Notes: generated by a model from the letters alone, not told the origin. Shown: positions 11,024 through 55,110, counted from the stretch's first letter. The stretch: 64,000 bases of DNA from Bacilli bacterium (GCA_017501465.1 JAFVWY010000009.1:115092-179091), one strand, 5' to 3'. A program made the numbers and translations.

Positions 11024-12015
11024 AAACAATTGTTATAATTGGGGGAAATACTTTAGGCCATGTAATTCCTGGAATAAGTATCGTTAATGGCCTTAGAAAT
11101 AAATATCCTCAAAATAGAATTATTTATGTTACTAATAGTAAACAAATGAATCTAAAAATTATTAAAGAATCAAACGCTGATATAAAAGAGTTTATTGATA
11201 TTAAGAGCCTTTCAAGACTTAATGAAATTAAAGAGTTTTTTAAGCTAAGAAAATACTTTATTAATTTATATAAAAAGTATAAGGTTGATTTAGTAATTGG
11301 ATTTGGTTCTTTTATATCTAGTGTTGGTATAATTACAGCCCAAATGCTAAATATTGATACAATAATTCATGAACAAAATAAAGTATTGGGACTTGGTAAT
11401 AAGTTATGTTATTTTAAAACAAAGAAATTACTATTGAATTATCCGTTAAATAAAAAACATAGAAAGAGTGTTGTTGTTGGTAATCCAATCCTAGTAAGTA
11501 ATCAAAGTAAAACAAAAAAAGAAAAATTAGTAATTACTAGTGGTAGCGGAGGAGCAAAATTTTTTAATGATATAATGGTAGATTTCTTAAATAATTACGA
11601 AGACAATTTAGAAATTACTTTTATTACAGGAAAAAAATATTACGATGAGATAAATTCAAAAATTAATAATAAAAAAATACAAATAGTTGACTTCATTGAT
11701 GATTTAGGTAGTTATTTACAAGATGTTAAATATATAATTACAAGAGCTGGTGCGACTACTTTATCAGAGATTTTTGAACTTGGTATTAAACCTATCATTA
11801 TTCCATCGCCTAATGTTTCTAATAATCATCAAGTATTAAACGCTTTAGAATATAAAGATTACAGTATAATTTTATATGAAAAAAATTTAACACCTGATGT
11901 GTTACTAACTTCTTTAAAAAAATTAAAGGATTTAAACCCCTTTAAAAAAGACTGTTTGGTAAGTCCTGTCTATCAATTTATAGAGGAAGTAAATGATGTT
12001 AAAAGACTATATTAG
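11020..12015 (+). CDS. murG: undecaprenyldiphospho-muramoylpentapeptide beta-N-acetylglucosaminyltransferase
   Basis: N-terminal IVIIGGNTLGHVIPGISI G-loop. C-terminal TRAGATTLSE. Confidence 0.85.
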   Translation: MKTIVIIGGNTLGHVIPGISIVNGLRNKYPQNRIIYVTNSKQMNLKIIKESNADIKEFIDIKSLSRLNEIKEFFKLRKYFINLYKKYKVDLVIGFGSFISSVGIITAQMLNIDTIIHEQNKVLGLGNKLCYFKTKKLLLNYPLNKKHRKSVVVGNPILVSNQSKTKKEKLVITSGSGGAKFFNDIMVDFLNNYEDNLEITFITGKKYYDEINSKINNKKIQIVDFIDDLGSYLQDVKYIITRAGATTLSEIFELGIKPIIIPSPNVSNNHQVLNALEYKDYSIILYEKNLTPDVLLTSLKKLKDLNPFKKDCLVSPVYQFIEEVNDVKRLY

Positions 12016-16642: not shown

Positions 16643-16748
16643 TTAATTAAGCCTTCGGGCTTAATTTTTTTAAATTTTAAAGTTTGACATTAATTACTTG
16701 ATAAAATATTCAAAAAGTGGTATCATATGTAAGAAAGAGGTAATTAGC

Positions 16749-19262
16749 ATGTTTAAAAAATTATTTGATTCAGGATATAAAGAACTAAAGAAATGTGAAA
16801 AACTTGCAGATAAAGTTTTAGCTTTAGAATCTAAATATCGTGAAATGACTGACGATGAATTAAAGAATAAAACTATTGAGTTTAAAGAAAGACTAAGTAA
16901 AGGTGAAACTCTAGATGATATTTTAGTAGAAGCTTTCGCAACCTCACGTGAAGCTGCATATAGAGTATTAGGTTTACTAGCATTTAAAGTTCAAATTATT
17001 GGTGCGGCAACAATGCATTATGGTAATATTGCCGAAATGAAAACTGGTGAAGGTAAAACATTAACTTCAGTTTTAGTTGCTTATCTTAATGCTTTATCAG
17101 GTAAGGGTGTTCATATCGTTACTGTTAATGAATACTTAGCTCATCGTGATGCTACTGAAATGGGTATGGTTCATAAATTCTTAGGTTTAACTGTCGGGTT
17201 AAATGTTAGAGAACTTACTAAAGAAGAAAAGAAAGAAGCATACAATTGTGATATTACTTACTCTACTAATAATGAATTAGGGTTTGACTACTTAAGAGAC
17301 CACATGGTAGTAAGACTTGAAGATATGGTACAAAGAGAATTAAATTTTGCCATCGTCGATGAAGTTGACTCTATTTTAATTGATGAAGCAAGAACACCTT
17401 TAATCATCTCTGGTGGTGCAAAGGGTGGACCAAATTTATATGAATCTGCTAATACTTTTGTTAGAAGTCTTCGTGAAGATGAATATGAAAAAGATGTTAA
17501 GTCTAAACACGTTACTTTAACAGAAAAAGGTATGGAGAGAGCTCAAAATTACTTTAGAATTGATAACTTATATGATGTTCAATATGTAACATTAGTACAT
17601 AGAATTAATAATGCCTTAAAAGCAAATTATGGAATGGATCGCGATGTTGACTATGTTGTTCAAGATAATACAGTTATTATCGTTGACCCATTTACAGGTC
17701 GTTTAATGCATGGAAGACAATTTAGCGAAGGATTACATCAAGCATTAGAAGCTAAAGAAAGAGTAGAAATTAAGAAAGAAACTAGAACATTAGCAACAAT
17801 TACATTCCAAAATTATTTTAGACTTTATAATAAACTTGCTGGGATGACAGGTACTGCTAAAACAGAAGAAGAAGAATTTAGAAATATTTATAATATGTTT
17901 GTAGTTGAAATTCCAACTAATGTTCCAGTTGTTAGAATTGATGATAATGATAGAATTTTCCAAACTATGAAGGGAAAATACAATGCACTAGCTAAAGATA
18001 TTGCTGAAAGACATAAAAAAGGTCAACCAGTTTTAGTTGGTACAATTTCAATTGAATCAAGTGAATTATTATCAGAATTACTTAGAAAACGTGGTATTCC
18101 ACATAAGGTTTTAAATGCTAAACAACATGAAAGAGAAGCAGAAATTGTTGCTCATGCTGGTGAAATTGGTGCAGTTACCATTGCAACAAATATGGCAGGT
18201 CGTGGTACCGATATTAAACTTGGTGAAGGTGTTGTTGAGCTTGGCGGTCTTGCTGTTATTGGTACTGAACGTCATGAGTCACGTCGTATTGATAATCAGT
18301 TAAGAGGTCGTAGTGGACGTCAAGGAGACCCAGGATATAGCTGTTTTTACTTATCATGTGAAGATGATTTACTAGTAAGATTTGGTAGTGATAGATTTAA
18401 AACAATTGTAAAACTTGGTACTAGCGGTGAAGTTGATGAAGAAGGTAATGAATTACCACTTACAATGAAGATTATGAGTAATTTTATTGAAGGTGCTCAA
18501 AAAAGAGTTGAAGGTGCTAACTACGACAGACGTAAAAATGTCGTTGAATATGATGAAGTATTAAGATTACAAAGAGAAGTTATTTATCAACAAAGACATG
18601 ATATTTTAACAATGGATGATATGGAACCAGTAATTGTTAAAATGATGAAAAGTGTGGTAGAAAGATCTGTTAACAAATTTGTAGTTTACGAAGGTAAAAA
18701 AGAATCATTTGATACAGAAAGATTCTATAAAGAATTTGTTCAACTATATTTTAATGCTGAAAGCTTTGAATATGATGCTTTTGATGAGTTAAAAACAGAT
18801 GAAATTAAAGAGAAAATCTATAATAAGTTTATCAGTAACCTAGAAGATAAAAAGAATACTTTACCTGCTGAGGTTGTTCAAGAATTTATGAAAGTAATTC
18901 TATTAAAAGTTGTTGATAGATACTGGATGAATCATATTGACCAAATGAGTAGTCTAAGACAAAGTATTGGCTTAAAATCATATTCTCAAGAAAACCCACT
19001 TAGAGAATATCGTGAAATAGGTTTCCAAATGTTCGATGAAATGATTATGCATATTGAAAATGATGTTGTAATCAATATTAATAGAGCACAAATTAGGGAT
19101 AACTTAGAAAGAGAACAAGTAGCAAAACCAACAGGAACAAGTGGTGGTGGAAGTGAAGAAACTCTTAAGAGAAAACCAGTAACTTCAAATAAAAAACCTG
19201 GTAGAAATGAACCATGTCCTTGTGGTAGTGGTAAAAAATATAAAAACTGTTGTGGGAAGTAG
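16749..19262 (+). CDS. secA: preprotein translocase ATPase SecA
   Basis: MFKKLFDSGYKELKK start after AAGAGG. Walker A GEGKT. DEVDSILIDEARTPLIISG. C-terminal zinc finger CPCGSGKKYKNCCG. Confidence 0.95.
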   Translation: MFKKLFDSGYKELKKCEKLADKVLALESKYREMTDDELKNKTIEFKERLSKGETLDDILVEAFATSREAAYRVLGLLAFKVQIIGAATMHYGNIAEMKTGEGKTLTSVLVAYLNALSGKGVHIVTVNEYLAHRDATEMGMVHKFLGLTVGLNVRELTKEEKKEAYNCDITYSTNNELGFDYLRDHMVVRLEDMVQRELNFAIVDEVDSILIDEARTPLIISGGAKGGPNLYESANTFVRSLREDEYEKDVKSKHVTLTEKGMERAQNYFRIDNLYDVQYVTLVHRINNALKANYGMDRDVDYVVQDNTVIIVDPFTGRLMHGRQFSEGLHQALEAKERVEIKKETRTLATITFQNYFRLYNKLAGMTGTAKTEEEEFRNIYNMFVVEIPTNVPVVRIDDNDRIFQTMKGKYNALAKDIAERHKKGQPVLVGTISIESSELLSELLRKRGIPHKVLNAKQHEREAEIVAHAGEIGAVTIATNMAGRGTDIKLGEGVVELGGLAVIGTERHESRRIDNQLRGRSGRQGDPGYSCFYLSCEDDLLVRFGSDRFKTIVKLGTSGEVDEEGNELPLTMKIMSNFIEGAQKRVEGANYDRRKNVVEYDEVLRLQREVIYQQRHDILTMDDMEPVIVKMMKSVVERSVNKFVVYEGKKESFDTERFYKEFVQLYFNAESFEYDAFDELKTDEIKEKIYNKFISNLEDKKNTLPAEVVQEFMKVILLKVVDRYWMNHIDQMSSLRQSIGLKSYSQENPLREYREIGFQMFDEMIMHIENDVVININRAQIRDNLEREQVAKPTGTSGGGSEETLKRKPVTSNKKPGRNEPCPCGSGKKYKNCCGK

Positions 19263-48717: not shown

Positions 48718-49078
48718 GGGCTAGTATTGGTTTCGACGGGATGTTAGAAGGTTGATAAGCATACCGTGGTCATGCACGTTAAAACATCTAGGTTTAAAAT
48801 AACCGGAAATCAAAATTTAGCTTTCTGCTAGGCTTAAATAGCAGATCCTAATAATTAGGGTAACTCCTTTGTGTCTTGCCTATGTGATACAAAAGGATTC
48901 AGAGAATAGGCTATGATGATCATATTAGCTTCGGTATAGGATTCGAGATTTAGAGCTGGTAGTAATTATGTTTTGTTTATTTTCATAATTACTATGAGAC
49001 CAAATTAATAAACTAAGTATGTAGAAAATTGATTAGATAATGTTTCGGACGCGGTTTCGACTACCGCCTAGTCCACCA
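48718..49078 (+). ncRNA. ssrA: transfer-messenger RNA (tmRNA, ssrA)
   Basis: 5' GGGCUAG pairs with 3' CUAGUCC, then discriminator A plus encoded CCA. GGUUUCGACGGG D-analog. T-arm GCGGUUUCGACUACCGC with UUCGACU loop. 361 nt. Internal tag ORF ends with UAG. Another frame ends with UAA UAA. Confidence 0.85.
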
Positions 49079-49176
49079 TTAGAATACACGCCACTTTGTT
49101 GAAAAATGAAGTGGTTTTTTTATTTTATAGAAATTTGGTTTTTGTATTGACAATGTAGTGACATTTTGGTATAATG
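49047..49176 (+). repeat. att-like module copy A: tmRNA 3' end, terminator hairpin, TTGACA-17-TATAAT promoter
   Basis: Core tagtccaccattagaatacacgccactttgttgaaaaatgaagtg (49070..49114) recurs at 52146..52190 with 3 mismatches. A more degenerate copy lies at 50996..51044. All three are followed by a promoter. Confidence 0.75.
49089..49122 (+). terminator. intrinsic terminator downstream of tmRNA
   Basis: ccactt..aagtgg hairpin followed by ttttttt. Confidence 0.6.
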
Positions 49177-49198
49177 AAAGTGTTATGGAGGTATTTTT

Positions 49199-49831
49199 AT
49201 GAGTTATATACAAATTAGAATTGATGATGAATTAAAAGAAGAAGCTGTAAAATTGTTTAATGAATTAGGTTTAGATTTATCTACAGCTATTCGTCTTTTT
49301 CTAAAGAAAAGTATTGATGATAAAAAAATGCCCTTTAAATTAAAAGGCAAGGGACGTGACGATTCTAAAGATGTTAAATACCGATTAAGAGCAGATGTAA
49401 TGGTACCACCTAATACTAACCCGTTTGAAGTAATGGATGAATTTATCCGAGTTTGTAATGAGAATGAATGGTACTGTTTAGGTGGTGGTGTACAATATCC
49501 TAATAAAGTCTTGACACTTTCAAAACCGGATGATGACATATATTATCACGGTTCACCATTTAAAATTGAAACTTTAAAAGAAGGGTTTGATTTTACGCCA
49601 TTTAAAGAACTTGCAATTTCATTTGGAAGTAAGCCATCACATATATCTATTAATGAGGGGAAAGTTAGCCATGATGGGATTAAATATCCTGTATATTTAT
49701 ATCAAATTGATGAAGACATAAAACTTGAAAAAGATTTTATTAATCATCCAAATTCAGCATTTGATAAAGGAATGGAATTCCGTTCTAAACGTGATTTAAA
49801 ATTAAAGTTGATAGATGTTATTAATGAGTAG
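49199..49831 (+). CDS. RelB/DinJ-type ribbon-helix-helix antitoxin-like domain fused to ~160-aa domain of unknown function
   Basis: N-terminal MSYIQIRIDDELKEEAVKLFNELGLDLSTAIRLFLKKSI matches the DinJ/RelB antitoxin family. The C-terminal domain has no recognised motif. Promoter 49147..49175 upstream. Confidence 0.55.
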   Translation: MSYIQIRIDDELKEEAVKLFNELGLDLSTAIRLFLKKSIDDKKMPFKLKGKGRDDSKDVKYRLRADVMVPPNTNPFEVMDEFIRVCNENEWYCLGGGVQYPNKVLTLSKPDDDIYYHGSPFKIETLKEGFDFTPFKELAISFGSKPSHISINEGKVSHDGIKYPVYLYQIDEDIKLEKDFINHPNSAFDKGMEFRSKRDLKLKLIDVINE

Positions 49832-49840
49832 GTGAATATT

Positions 49841-50839
49841 ATGGAAAAACAATATGGTCAAATCATTATATATAAGACACCTGATGGCAACACAAAATTA
49901 GAAGTTAAATTTTATGAAGATACTGTTTGGTTATCACAAGAACAACTTGTAGAACTTTACGGGTCTAGTAAATCCAATATTAGTGAACATATTAAACACA
50001 TATTTGAAGAAGGTGAACTAGATGAAAATTCAACTGTTCGGAATTTCCGAACAGTTGCTAGTAACGGAAGAACATATAATATAAAGTATTATAATCTAAA
50101 AATGATTATTGCTATTGGATATAGAGTTAGAAGTAATATCGGAACAAATTTTAGAAAATGGGCTACAACAACTTTAGAAGAATATATAGTTAAAGGATTT
50201 TCTATAAACGATGATTTACTAAAACGTGCAGGTGGCGGAAGATATTTTAAAGAACTACTTGCAAGAATAAGAGATATTAGATCTAGCGAAAGAGTGTTTT
50301 GGCGACAAGTTCTGGATATATTTGCAACATCAATAGATTATGATCCTAAACTTGAATTATCACAAGAGTTTTTTAAAACTGTACAAAACAAAATGCACTG
50401 GGCAACTCATGGTCATACTGCTGCTGAGATAATAGTAGAAAGAGCAAATGCTAAAAGAGATTTTATGGGTTTGACTTCATTTGATGGGGATTACCCAACA
50501 AAAGAAGATGCTGAAATTGCTAAAAACTATTTATCAAAAGATGAACTTGATACACTAAATAGAATTGTTTCATTATATTTAGATTTTGATGAACTTATGG
50601 CAAAAGAAGAAAAGCCAATGACGATGAAGGATTGGATAAAACAGCTTGATTATTTTCTAAAAATGAGTAGAAAAGATATATTGACTGGAAGTGGAACTAT
50701 ATCACATATTAAAGCATTAGAACATGCTAGAAAAGAATATAATGATTTTAGTAAGAGAATTTTAACAAATCCAACTGAAAATGAAAAATTATATTTTGAT
50801 AAATTACAACAGTTAATGTTAATAGATAAAAAAGAATAG
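49841..50839 (+). CDS. RhuM-family (virulence protein RhuM-like) protein
   Basis: IIIYKTPDGNTKLEVKFYEDTVWLSQEQLVELYG and KYYNLKMIIAIGYRVRSNIGTNFRKWATTTLEEYIVKGF match the RhuM family N-terminal and central core. AGGTGA RBS before ATG 49841. Starts 10 nt after the upstream stop. Confidence 0.7.
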   Translation: MEKQYGQIIIYKTPDGNTKLEVKFYEDTVWLSQEQLVELYGSSKSNISEHIKHIFEEGELDENSTVRNFRTVASNGRTYNIKYYNLKMIIAIGYRVRSNIGTNFRKWATTTLEEYIVKGFSINDDLLKRAGGGRYFKELLARIRDIRSSERVFWRQVLDIFATSIDYDPKLELSQEFFKTVQNKMHWATHGHTAAEIIVERANAKRDFMGLTSFDGDYPTKEDAEIAKNYLSKDELDTLNRIVSLYLDFDELMAKEEKPMTMKDWIKQLDYFLKMSRKDILTGSGTISHIKALEHARKEYNDFSKRILTNPTENEKLYFDKLQQLMLIDKKE

Positions 50840-50917
50840 TTTTCAGGTTTTTAAATATTTATGCTAATCTCATCAGAGTTTTTGCATTATGGTATAGCTT
50901 TCCGTTTCAATAATTTA

Positions 50918-50962
50918 AATTCCCGGTTTTTACTTAGATGCCGGGAATTATTTGTAATTTTA
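50918..50962 (+). terminator. intrinsic terminator after the RhuM gene
   Basis: aattcccgg / ccgggaatt 9-bp inverted repeat with 14-nt loop, followed by atttgtaatttt. Confidence 0.55.
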
Positions 50963-50992
50963 ATAAAAATAACACGCATACAGTCAGAAACT

Positions 50993-51099
50993 CCCCTGGT
51001 CCACTAAAAATAATTTCGTCTGGTTTGTTGAAATAACAATCCAGTTGTTAATTTAATTTTGATCTTGATTTTGCAAACAAAATTCTTATATGCTATAAT
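50993..51099 (+). repeat. att-like module copy C (degenerate): tmRNA-3'-end-like core, ctgg..ccag hairpin, TTGCAA-17-TGcTATAAT promoter
   Basis: cctggtccactaaaaataatttcgtctggtttgttgaaataacaatccag aligns to copy A (cctagtccaccattagaatacacgccactttgttgaaaaatgaagtgg). Promoter at 51071..51099. Confidence 0.55.
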
Positions 51100-51132
51100 T
51101 TCAATGAAATGATATTCATAGGAGGTAAAATT

Positions 51133-51999
51133 ATGAAAATAATACATATGATTGATGATTACAAAATATTATGTAAAGATATAGAATCTATGGGTAAATA
51201 TGAAGCATATAAAGCATATATAAAAAAATATCCTTATTTCTTTGAAGGTGTATTAAAATATTTATATTGCCAACCAATAGAGAATTTAAAAGAAATGATT
51301 GAGAATGTTAATTTTCATTTATTATTAAAAACAGCAGAAGAAAATTATGAAACTGGTAAAGTGGATTATATTATTGAGTTTATGAATAAATTTATCAAAA
51401 AAATGAATGTTGATTTTGATTTTTCATTTCTTATAGGTATAGAAATGGGGAATATTGGAGGATGTGCAACTCCGTGTGATACAGGGGACCCTCATTTGTA
51501 TATAGGAATAGATAAACCGTTAGATAAACAAAAGATTGGTATGCTTATTTCGCATGAACTATATCATATGTTAAGGGCATATATGACTCAAGGGAGTACA
51601 GCGGATACGGTGTTTTCTAGAATGGTAGAAGAAGGATTAGCATCATATTCATCATTATGGGCTCATGATATGGAATGGAACACGGTTAATATTGCAAAGA
51701 CATTGGGCGTATCTGAAAAACAAGCAAATAATTTATTAAATAATACAAATGCCCTATTAGAAAGAATTGTTAATGATGGTGAAAAACCGATCTCAGTAGA
51801 GACAATGACTGAATATTTTATTGCTGATATGAATGATGTGGAGTTTCCAGTTATAGGATACTATGTTGGATTATATCTTGCACATTTATCTATAGAGCAA
51901 GGGATAGATTTTGAAAGTTTTATTTCAATGTCACAAAATGATATAATTGACATGTGGTTAAAACAAATACTGACACTTAAATGTATAAAAAATAATTAA
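51133..51999 (+). CDS. putative zinc metallopeptidase (HExxH; DUF2268-like)
   Basis: SHELYHML HExxH motif in a helical context. GGAGG RBS before ATG 51133. Own promoter embedded in repeat copy C. Confidence 0.5.
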   Translation: MKIIHMIDDYKILCKDIESMGKYEAYKAYIKKYPYFFEGVLKYLYCQPIENLKEMIENVNFHLLLKTAEENYETGKVDYIIEFMNKFIKKMNVDFDFSFLIGIEMGNIGGCATPCDTGDPHLYIGIDKPLDKQKIGMLISHELYHMLRAYMTQGSTADTVFSRMVEEGLASYSSLWAHDMEWNTVNIAKTLGVSEKQANNLLNNTNALLERIVNDGEKPISVETMTEYFIADMNDVEFPVIGYYVGLYLAHLSIEQGIDFESFISMSQNDIIDMWLKQILTLKCIKNN

Positions 52000-52118
52000 A
52001 TATTAAACGTTTAAGATTTCGTACAAAAACGAGAATTTTTTGCACTATTGATATTTCAAGGGTATAAATTAATGAAAAACGTTAAAAACCATATAAAAGG
52101 ATAAGTTATTATCAAATT

Positions 52119-52233
52119 GGACGCGGGTGGAAACAAGTAGCCACCTAGTCCACCATTAGAACACACGGCACTTTGTTGAAAAATAAAGTGTCTTTTTATA
52201 TTTGTAGTCAATATGAATTTTATATGTTATAAT
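52119..52233 (+). repeat. att-like module copy B: displaced tmRNA 3'-end fragment, hairpin, promoter
   Basis: ggacgcgg...tagtccaccattagaacacacggcactttgttgaaaaataaagtg, then T-run and TAGTCA-17-TGtTATAAT promoter. It has no 5' tRNA-like half and its T-arm is degenerate. Confidence 0.75.
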
Positions 52234-52273: not shown

Positions 52274-52972
52274 ATGAACCCACAAGTTTTTGGAAAAGAA
52301 CATTTGATTTATATTTTTGTTAGTATAATAGTGGCTTTAGCTGTACTTATCTTAACAAAAAGATTTGCTAAAACAGAAAAGATAAAAAATATTGTAATGA
52401 AAGTTGCAGGTGCAATTTTATTTATAATTATATTTATTAATAGATTAGTGCTTGTTTTTGAATATAATCAAGTAGATTGGATTCAATTTGTACCTGATTC
52501 TATATGTAGCACTTCAAGCTTTGTTTTATCTTTAGCGATATTATTTGGGAAAAAAGATAATAAGGTTCTTCATTTTATTTGGCTTGTTTCTCTTGCGGGA
52601 GGAGTAATAACTACATTTTATCCTAATTTTATTGGACAAAACTCTAAGTTTATGTATCCACCTACAATTTTTGGAATGATGCATCATACTTGGGGTGCAA
52701 TAGTTGTAATACTATTATTTTTGTTGGGATACTTAAAACTTACATATAAAAAATGGTATTGTACTTTGATTGGATTTACATCATATTTATCATATGGCGC
52801 TTTTTTAATGTGTGTATTAAAAATAGGTAATCCTTTATATATGACAGGGCCAGCACTTGATGGCACAATATTTACGATTTGGGTACTAATTCCAATTTAT
52901 TTTGTTGTTTATGGGCTAATATTGGGTGTATTAGAATTAATAAGAAACAAAGATAAACTGTTAAAAAAATAA
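52274..52972 (+). CDS. YwaF-family integral membrane protein
   Basis: Seven TM helices, 232 aa. Overall match to the intramembrane YwaF (TIGR02206-type) family. Confidence 0.5.
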   Translation: MNPQVFGKEHLIYIFVSIIVALAVLILTKRFAKTEKIKNIVMKVAGAILFIIIFINRLVLVFEYNQVDWIQFVPDSICSTSSFVLSLAILFGKKDNKVLHFIWLVSLAGGVITTFYPNFIGQNSKFMYPPTIFGMMHHTWGAIVVILLFLLGYLKLTYKKWYCTLIGFTSYLSYGAFLMCVLKIGNPLYMTGPALDGTIFTIWVLIPIYFVVYGLILGVLELIRNKDKLLKK

Positions 52973-54508: not shown

Positions 54509-54883
54509 ATGGGCTTAGATTTATTACTTGACGGAATAGCGGCCATCACTTGGAAAGAAATCGTAATGTATTGTGTTGGGATTATTTTGATATATCTAGT
54601 AATTCTAAACAACTAGAACCAACTCTATTATTACCAATGGGATTTGGTGCAATTTTGGTTAACATTCCGTTTTCTTCTGTATTAACTCAAGGTAGTACAA
54701 TTGGTGCTATTGAGTGGTTATTTGATGTTGGTATTAATGTTAGTGAAATATTACCACTTTTACTATTTATAGGCATTGGAGTATTGCTTGATTTTGTACC
54801 ATTATTATCTAATCCAAAATTAATATTGCAGGTCAAGTTGCATCTGCAATTGCTGGTGGTGTTGTATTATCATTCTTTATGTA
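54509..54883 (+). pseudogene. frameshifted N-terminal remnant of a Na+-translocating decarboxylase beta subunit (OadB/GcdB/MmdB family)
   Basis: MGLDLLLDGIAAITWKEIVMYCVGIILIYL then stop. Next frame: LEPTLLLPMGFGAILVNIP...PLLLFIGIGVLLDFVPLLSNPK. A third frame reads GQVASAIAGGVV then stop. About 250 aa of the family are missing. GGAGG RBS retained. Confidence 0.5.
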
Positions 54884-55110
54884 GGAGGCAACTAATGTTT
54901 TTAAAAATTAACACTGAACAATTATTACAAGCTTTAGATATAAGTTGGAAATCATTAGTAGCACTTTTTGTCGCAATGCTTCTAATTTATGTTTCAATTA
55001 ATTTCTTGAGTAGTATTAAGAAAAATAAGTTTATTAATTAACTTCATAAGTTTTGCTTATGAAGTTTTTTTATGGTAAAATATTATATGTAAAATTAATC
55101 GAGGTATGAT

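Follow-up and report, generated by a model that had tools for sequence, protein, structure and literature searches.

What has accumulated behind the transfer-messenger RNA (tmRNA) gene ssrA in an uncultured Bacilli bacterium, and how did it arrive there? The question is raised by a 64,000-nt stretch of one strand (GCA_017501465.1, JAFVWY010000009.1:115092-179091; hereafter the window, whose positions serve as coordinates) with a G+C content of 27.9%, in which the 3' end of ssrA recurs twice downstream of the gene. Copy 1 (at ssrA itself) and copy 3 (the middle one) enclose a relB fusion gene and rhuM, and copies 3 and 2 (the distal one) enclose a DUF5700/DUF2268-like gene. An earlier note on this DNA had taken the arrangement for the footprint of serial site-specific insertions at an attachment (att) site in the tmRNA gene. 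We consider an accreted tandem array of att-bounded, recombinase-free cassettes behind ssrA, served by a recombinase in trans, to be the best explanation and a probable one. The comparison covered about 20 contigs of the window species, from independent metagenome assemblies and gathered through exact-protein look-ups, and six genomes of an uncultured low-GC Bacilli clade (the window species and five related ones); individual sequences are cited by L numbers.

ARAGORN and Rfam each detect one and the same tmRNA gene in the window; it covers positions 1-374 of the RF00023 model and is full-length, and an intact target gene therefore stands at one end of the array (Table 1). Between 48600 and 52400, a repeat finder returned one strong direct repeat, 49064-49130 versus 52141-52207 (67 nt, 85% identity), which spans the last 15 nt of ssrA, the terminator hairpin, and the T-run. 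The local alignment score of the distal copy is 96 compared with 31 for the best of 2000 shuffles, and the three mismatches that had been counted in its 45-nt core are correct. The two outer cores (49067 and 52144) are perfect and the inner one (50995) carries two substitutions. At the far end, a displaced 3' fragment of ssrA thus forms the other half of the direct repeat (52119-52155, GGACGCGG...CCTAGTCCACCA), and GGACGCGG there starts at -25 from core 2 versus -20 in ssrA. This copy had been described as lacking any 5' tRNA-like half; the 5' acceptor strand and the T-loop are indeed absent, but more than the 3' tip is left, as the copy keeps GGACGCGG and a diverged T-arm-like stretch. All secondary copies lack the 5' acceptor strand and the T-loop, and a tRNA-like fold is therefore impossible. 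Rfam found no RNA family other than tmRNA in the arrays, apart from one mir-7961 match (E=0.14) that was taken as chance. As a separate observation on the gene itself, its tag-coding part (48805-48831) predicts a tag peptide that ends in Cys and not in the usual Ala-Ala, and the peptides predicted across species (window, L021-L024, L026, and L094) are all Cys-ended (GNQNLAFC, GNTNLAFC, GNQTLAFC, GNSNYAYC, and ANTNYAFAC).

When the three copies are aligned, copy 2 stands far beyond chance, whereas the middle copy (CCTGGTCCACTA at 50995) does not rise above chance in the window alone: 55/2000 and 17/2000 shuffles match its scores against copies 1 and 2, respectively, and unrelated window segments outscore it. 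It is upheld through its relatives. The contig of another strain of the species, L002, has a perfect CCTAGTCCACCA at the same position; the left arm is homologous to cassette ends in the related species (L022 14454/15511/19586, L027, and L096) and to the arm at L002 13175; and for the hairpin, a homologue is found in the tmRNA terminator of L024 (83% over 60 nt). Because the core is perfect in L002 and both arms have homologues at the tmRNA loci of other species, the middle copy is judged genuine on comparative grounds.

The homologues of the DegV protein encoded upstream of ssrA place the organism among uncultured Bacilli, with named matches only to metagenome-assembled genomes (MAGs) labelled Bacilli, Erysipelotrichaceae, or Anaeroplasmataceae. 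A scan of a genome collection with the DegV protein gave no relatives, and a scan with the 32-nt ssrA 3' end gave one genome only, the goat-colon MAG Bacilli bacterium RGIG2093; JGI metagenomes scanned with a 26-nt ssrA end yielded nothing, nor did IMG/VR when scanned with the ssrA end or with a left arm and its core. Plasmid and phage BLAST searches with the whole array returned rhuM as the sole match. Within the clade, the upstream block YidD...FakA-RecG-RNaseIII-U32-DegV-ssrA is kept in the five related genomes, and the downstream content differs in each. The site is hypervariable among relatives while the upstream region is syntenic, which bears out the suggestion that the tmRNA 3' end is an insertion hotspot.

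The same kind of array recurs in these relatives, and the identical 12-mer CCTAGTCCACCA terminates ssrA in L022, L024, L027, and L096. The largest, in L022/L023, has five perfect and two near-perfect cores in 8.4 kb and up to six cassettes, with as cargo a HipA-like gene; a relB fusion and rhuM; a 261-aa protein; DUF3800 and one further gene; three small genes; and a RhuM/leucine-rich-repeat (LRR) fragment. Three cores are present in L027 (two cassettes, followed by trkH) and in L096 (cassettes including an AAA_14/DUF4143 gene that matches PDC-S01), and two in L024. The cassettes, 0.95-2.1 kb in size, have all their genes on the same strand as ssrA, and the flank beyond the array differs by species (TrkH in L027, PTS-EAL in L022). 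Neither the window nor the arrays of L022, L024, L027, and L096 contain an integration module. A more distant species, L026, has another ssrA end and another boundary repeat with the same kind of array: its boundary consists of CAGAATAGTAGAATAGGTTT and several iteron-like GGTGCTAAAAATTTACACGATT copies flanking each junction (11284-11490, 16730-17043, and 19042-19135), and its cargo includes a methyltransferase locus, an SLFN/AlbA protein, and a MazE-like gene.

How the boundaries are built was examined for 15 secondary sites from the six genomes, anchored on the core. The 12-nt core is 87-100% conserved per position, and identity to the tmRNA is 0-33% directly left of it; the description of the repeats as decaying therefore suits the middle copy in this strain but not the core over the 15 sites. 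Nine left arms from four species, the middle site of the window included, have one module of 40-90 nt (hairpin, AATAAAA, and TGACGTGGATACAGTCAAGTA), and two such modules in L022 are 94% identical despite different cargo; the left arms are thus not a product of random decay. Type A right arms occur at window copies 1 and 2, L012, L022, L024, L027, and L096, and type B right arms at the middle copy of the window and as the ssrA terminator of L024. Five different right arms are found with one and the same left-arm type, and seven different left sides with the type A right arm, every join being at the core. This is the pattern expected of site-specific recombination; the repeats can be regarded, as had been claimed, as att-type copies of the ssrA 3' end. 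Modules of the Xer/dif type were considered and rejected, as the core lacks the 11-6-11 dif-like layout. The GGACGCGG-like motif starts at -20 in 6/6 ssrA genes and at -25 in 11/15 secondary sites. Large serine recombinases have att sites whose outer (zinc-ribbon) motif is 5 bp more distant from the crossover in attP compared with attB (PMC3783163). Judging from motif positions, the 5-nt displacement of the GACGNGG motif would fit this geometry; common descent of the arms could equally explain it, and the known phage's own arm shows no such shift. Dyad symmetry of the arms is moderate at most (up to 9/12), suggestive but not decisive.

An enzyme that uses the site was found in a prophage of a sister species. 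L021 belongs to the same species as L022 (same DegV protein) and has phage genes after ssrA. The core was absent from 57 IMG/VR relatives of the reverse transcriptase of this prophage, and one of them, phage L036, led to a 535-aa large serine recombinase that adjoins CTCCACCATTT. Its homologue on the L021 contig (P0169, 502 aa, GCA_965355605.1) has Resolvase, Recombinase, and Zn_ribbon_recom domains. At the far end of the prophage (L093), the recombinase is followed by TCAAGTCCACCATT and then by the first cassette, and the array beyond is 99.98% identical to that of L022. L022, L021, and L093 correspond to attB, attL, and attR, respectively, with AGTCCACCATT common to all three; L022, free of the prophage and otherwise identical, thus offers the matching empty site. 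The prophage measures ~46.6 kb by contig coordinates and lies between ssrA and the first cassette, with its 502-aa recombinase abutting attR; insertions therefore enter beside ssrA and displace the array outward. This occupied/empty pair with a recombinase-bearing prophage supports the claim of site-specific insertion at the tmRNA site. Judged by sequence, use of this site within the clade is shown for no enzyme other than the phage large serine recombinase. Two further features of the prophage (L021 11265-20873, L093 1-11509; contig CBDTAL010000018.1) were observed: a reverse transcriptase of the diversity-generating-retroelement type stands beside a 1965-aa tail-fibre-like protein, and the reading frame of the serine recombinase crosses attR and stops in host-derived DNA, so that integration alters the C-terminus of the enzyme.

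The contigs of the window species show that the locus is also subject to another kind of exchange. Several of them (L003, L013), assembled independently from different samples, show 100% identity with the window over 11-13 kb that take in all three copies, and the structure is therefore not an assembly artefact; many others end in or shortly past ssrA, or within cassette 1. L002 and L012 come from one sample. L002 is colinear with the window to 51004, where a perfect CCTAGTCCACCA is followed by trkH-trkA-histidine kinase. L012 is colinear from 49067 on; upstream of the core come a gene for a Fic-domain protein (HPFGDGNGRIAR motif) and 32 nt of a decayed ssrA end. The relB-rhuM cassette of the window is identical to the L002 allele as far as 49779 and to that of L012 from 49760 on, which puts a crossover at 49760-49779, inside the gene of cargo 1a; L001 combines these two alleles in another mosaic and has no differences of its own. 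The two cassette copies differ at 119 positions in 1944 nt. By this pattern of variable sites, the population therefore holds two diverged relB-rhuM copies, of which the window arrangement is a recombinant. Either homologous recombination deleted the trkH...fic segment seen in another strain, or a circle with that segment inserted via a single crossover in the cassette. A de Bruijn chimera was considered for L002 and is unlikely: L002 and L027 have different left arms, and just the 12-nt core is therefore shared at the junction.

Table 1. The tmRNA gene, repeat copies, arms, promoter-like sites, and cargo genes of the array, in window coordinates
Feature	Position	Strand	Evidence and remarks
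ssrA (tmRNA gene)	48718..49078	+	ARAGORN; Rfam RF00023, 144.6 bits; insertion target and array anchor
Core 1, CCTAGTCCACCA	49067..49078	+	Final 12 nt of ssrA: 3' acceptor strand plus ACCA
Right arm, type A	49079..49135	+	Terminator hairpin 49090-49115, T-run, ATTTTATAGAAATTT motif
Promoter of relB-rhuM operon	49147..49175	+	TTGACA-17-TATAAT with TG; 12/12 consensus
Cargo 1a, RelB/DinJ ribbon-helix-helix N-terminus fused to ~150-aa domain	49199..49831	+	
Cargo 1b, RhuM family, candidate phage-defence family	49841..50839	+	Pfam PF13310, 2e-106; PADLOC PDC-S05, 5e-146
Left arm, type 1 (3' module of cassette 1)	50918..50994	+	Terminator-like hairpin 50918-50949; decayed GACG..ATACAGTCA
Core 3, degenerate, CCTGGTCCACTA	50995..51006	+	10/12 match to core; boundary of cassettes 1 and 2
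Right arm, type B	51007..51099	+	Weakened hairpin 51020-51044; promoter-like TTGCAA-17-TATAAT 51071-51099
Cargo 2, putative zinc peptidase (DUF5700/DUF2268)	51133..51999	+	HExxH motif; Pfam 2e-07 and 1.5e-05
Left arm of cassette 2	52119..52143	+	GGACGCGG and diverged T-arm-like stretch
Core 2, perfect CCTAGTCCACCA	52144..52155	+	Distal array end; repeat and core search
Distal right arm, type A	52156..52233	+	Terminator 52167-52192; promoter-like TAGTCA-17-TATAAT 52205-52233

The right arms supply terminators, those of copies 1 and 2 being detected in a consensus scan (folds of -12.4 and -12.8 kcal/mol), while the hairpin of copy 3 is weaker (-8.6 kcal/mol) and without a T-run; the left-arm hairpin at 50918-50949 folds at -15.6 kcal/mol. 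As a side observation, a stem-loop of 27 nt whose arms pair perfectly over 12 bases each (CAACTGTTCGGA AAT TCCGAACAGTTG) lies within the rhuM coding sequence (50031-50057) and was flagged by the terminator scan on the minus strand. Sigma-70-like sites, each with TG, precede all three downstream genes, with consensus matches of 12/12 at the first and 10/12 at each of the others, in DNA so AT-rich that promoter-like sites are frequent (36 found versus 25.5 expected); the distal one points at a YwaF/TMEM164-family gene (52274-52972). The promoter had been read as part of one repeated module, and this part of the claim fails. The relB-rhuM operon recurs with its promoter behind a tRNA-Ser gene of another species (L032), where homology covers 49141-50841 and tmRNA-like cores are absent; the copy-1 promoter therefore belongs to the operon and not to the att module, and by local alignment it is not positionally homologous to the copy-2 promoter. 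The three promoters are analogous and not homologous.

The relB fusion encodes 210 aa, of which the first ~50-60 residues match RelB/DinJ and the ~150-aa domain has a weak ADP-ribosyltransferase-like fold. The pairing is not that of RelBE or DinJ-YafQ: the partner of the relB fusion is RhuM (an LDcluster4 protein in L028), and the extra 150-aa domain is added. Array cargo matches the candidate defence families PDC-S05, PDC-M03A, and PDC-S01 of PADLOC, which gave no match for cargo 2. ssrA is preceded by genes for a U32 peptidase and DegV, and the array is followed by a TMEM164/YwaF-family membrane protein, TraX, and an ECF S-component. Pfam searches of the cargo showed no recombinase or transfer genes in the two window cassettes, and no recombinase was present among the genes with Pfam results (cargo, 10 unassigned window open reading frames (ORFs), and the ~20 kb annotated neighbourhood); the other window ORFs were judged to be housekeeping by their N-terminal sequences alone, without a family search. 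Within this scope, the picture of two recombinase-free cargo units delimited by repeats is sustained. Further downstream, a short ORF at 54550-55041, between the genes for the ECF S-component and a short-chain dehydrogenase, is annotated in one assembly (L015) as a 134-aa fragment of the oxaloacetate decarboxylase beta subunit and is probably a gene remnant.

The cassettes differ in apparent age. The relB-rhuM cassette with its arms is 82.4% identical between the window and L022, compared with 80.0% for the core flank, and since the divergence between species approximately equals that of the flank, it was probably inherited from a common ancestor as an old resident and not a recent arrival. 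The trkH-trkA-histidine kinase block of L002 (13187-18165) is 96.7% identical to that of L027 (reverse strand), versus 78.8% for the DegV-ssrA flank, and therefore points to recent exchange between species with an end point at the core; the genes of this block look like ordinary potassium-uptake genes, and their transfer through the ssrA site is implied. Besides the operon behind tRNA-Ser, a relB fusion with a different downstream gene stands behind a tRNA cluster in other species; tmRNA-like cores are absent at both tRNA loci, and repeated tRNA ends are absent at the tRNA-Ser and tRNA-Gly loci that carry the relB fusion. In L032-L035 (9300-20600), tRNA-Ser(GGA) and the relB-rhuM operon are followed by a one-orientation run of small accessory genes, including acetyltransferases, a nitroreductase, a nucleotidyltransferase, Amidase_2, and HSP20.

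In the explanation that we prefer, the 3' end of ssrA would be the attB target, behind which small mobile units pile up in tandem. Each cassette would open with a core and a right arm (the new ssrA terminator), continue with a promoter and with cargo of one or two genes encoded on the same strand as ssrA, and close with a terminator hairpin and a left arm that mimics the T-arm region of ssrA, after which the next core follows. A new element would recombine at the ssrA-proximal core, regenerate ssrA, and push older units outward, as shown for the sister-species prophage, and a recombinase would act in trans on the recombinase-free cassettes of 1-2 kb; we infer that these were moved by the phage enzyme or another. 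Since the middle core is mutated in this strain, the two window cassettes (relB fusion plus rhuM; DUF5700 peptidase) are now probably fixed as one block. Homologous recombination between the two diverged relB-rhuM cassettes also shaped the present arrangement. Serial site-specific insertion is thus supported by the att-type repeats, the hotspot, and the prophage pair, but it did not build the arrangement alone, as cassette 1 is a mosaic.

Several points weigh against this explanation. The empty site that would join ssrA directly to the YwaF gene at 52274, which had been anticipated, was not found in the 20 contigs of the species, in all of which the DUF5700-YwaF junction is invariant. Neither a circular cassette nor a cassette-specific recombinase was seen in the contigs and collections scanned. 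The left arm of the phage is unlike the cassette left arms, and that its enzyme acts on the cassettes is therefore only inferred. Canonical large serine integrases without a directionality factor do not recombine attL or attR (PMC3783163), which makes serial insertion by one such enzyme awkward. The presence of the relB-rhuM cassette in two species would be explained by descent and not by movement. All data are metagenome assemblies, and L002, as one of these, could in principle be chimeric.

The main competing account, which we hold to be rather unlikely, is that the cassettes are deletion remnants of full-size integrase-bearing prophages or islands at ssrA and were never mobile themselves, the survivors being accessory genes close to one end together with the displaced att copy. 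In its favour, this core has taken up a full-size prophage that encodes a large serine recombinase, the decay of larger elements to integrase-less remnants is the standard route to cis-mobilizable elements (CIMEs; PMC5704250), and the vertical inheritance that the relB-rhuM cassette suggests would suit a remnant. Against this, the cassettes are uniformly compact and all on one strand, nine of them in four species carry one left-arm module of 40-90 nt that is unrelated to the phage arm, and the two nearly identical modules of L022 accompany different cargo; the scanned cargo proteins gave no phage or recombinase family match, pseudogene remnants not being specifically searched for. Unlikely too is an integron-like cassette system that the clade may run on ssrA, with own promoters, a conserved 40-90 nt 3' module, and a recombinase encoded elsewhere by which cassettes would be captured, excised, and reshuffled. 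The 3' module may then consist of the hairpin, the GACGNGG motif, whose distance to the core exceeds that in ssrA by exactly 5 bp, and the core itself with its 12 invariant nt; ssrA may serve as attI and the cassette ends as attC, with a serine instead of a tyrosine enzyme, to which the match of the 5-bp shift with attP/attB geometry may point.

Local duplication, in which unequal crossing-over or slippage copied the 3' flank of ssrA and cargo arrived separately with no site-specific recombination, would draw on the homologous recombination evident from the mosaic cassette and on the terminator that copies 1 and 2 have in common besides the core. It is nevertheless highly improbable: the left arms are families of their own and not ssrA copies, their GGACGCGG-like motif is shifted by exactly 5 nt in 11/15 sites, unrelated arms meet at the same 12 nt, and a prophage att pair occupies the same site. 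Still less credible is that the array is an assembly artefact, or that the tRNA-like 3' fragments are RNA processing or stability signals for the cargo transcripts; many contigs break in the region and the fragments are located at transcript ends, but the identity of L003 and L013, assembled from different samples, contradicts the former, and the lack of a 5' acceptor strand and T-loop, which precludes a tRNA-like fold, together with the detection of one ssrA only by ARAGORN and Rfam, speaks against the latter.

Among known systems, the closest to the accreted array are the ssrA genomic islands (ssrA-GIs) of Dehalococcoides, which lie in tandem downstream of a single-copy ssrA, are bounded by 20-bp ssrA repeats, and use a large serine recombinase, and some of which lack the integration module and were proposed to be cis-mobilizable (McMurdie et al. 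2011, PMC3146451). The two have in common tandem order, repeats of the ssrA 3' end, strain-variable content, and a large serine recombinase at the target. The units described here are ~ten times smaller (1-2 kb with 1-3 genes), the Dehalococcoides islands being in the typical size range of phage genomes, and they lack the six-gene integration module (the large serine recombinase DsiB, DsiA, and others) that in Dehalococcoides lies beside attL; a large serine recombinase is here found only in the L021/L093 prophage, beside attR. Cargo and host differ as well, with defence- or toxin-antitoxin-like genes in an uncultured gut Bacilli lineage instead of the reductive dehalogenases of Dehalococcoides. 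CIMEs keep attL and attR without integration or transfer genes and are found in tandem at the 3' end of a conserved gene, and in site-specific accretion an incoming element integrates at an att site already resident there (Pavlovic 2004; Bellanger 2011; reviewed in PMC5704250). Similarly, the window cassettes keep their flanking cores and have neither recombinase nor transfer genes, and the L021/L093 prophage beside the array represents accretion of this kind. CIMEs, however, are described as decayed integrative and conjugative or integrative and mobilizable elements (ICEs/IMEs) at protein or tRNA gene ends in streptococci, whereas the units here are single operons, and among the cassette proteins scanned with Pfam, none matched a conjugation or recombinase family.

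Staphylococcal cassette chromosome (SCC) and pseudo-SCC arrays at rlmH (orfX) are likewise tandem and bounded by short direct repeats of the end of a housekeeping gene, and their ccr-less members are moved by the large serine recombinases CcrAB in trans; SCC elements are much larger than the units here. Target gene and recombinase family differ, and no Ccr-like pair was found in our arrays. The tycheposon islands of Prochlorococcus by tRNA and tmRNA genes, where newcomers push older elements further in and leave partial tRNA copies and degenerate remnants (bioRxiv 2020.12.28.424599, Hackl et al.), resemble them in the position beside tmRNA and the displacement of older elements, but tycheposons carry tyrosine recombinases and replication modules, and the arrays here are regular, compact, and recombinase-free. 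Integrons share the small cassettes in one orientation, the recurring recombination site, the accessory or defence cargo, and the proximal entry. In contrast to integrons, no intI stands beside the array (the upstream genes are those for the U32 peptidase and DegV, and ssrA), the boundary is a copy of the ssrA 3' end and not a folded attC, with a left-arm hairpin that is terminator-like, and each cassette has its own sigma-70-like site, while integron cassettes are mostly promoterless and depend on a common Pc. Under the Islander-type definition of islands in tRNA and tmRNA genes (PMC4383910), the regenerated target gene and the displaced 3' fragment are both present, and an integrase within the island is absent (the cargo being the RelB fusion, RhuM, and DUF5700, with none among the window genes with Pfam results). 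As to type, the array is a known one that adds an example to tandem ssrA islands and CIMEs and differs in scale (single-operon units), regularity, cargo, and host.

The region downstream of ssrA is thus a place to seek accessory and candidate anti-phage genes in poorly known, uncultured animal-gut Bacilli, and the 12-nt core offers a simple handle by which cassettes can be delimited in metagenomes. With its matched set of attB, attL, and attR, the locus marks out a natural target of a large serine recombinase within an essential RNA gene. If it is true that the small cassettes are mobile in trans, they would constitute a compact, integron-like gene-capture platform with a different recombination chemistry.

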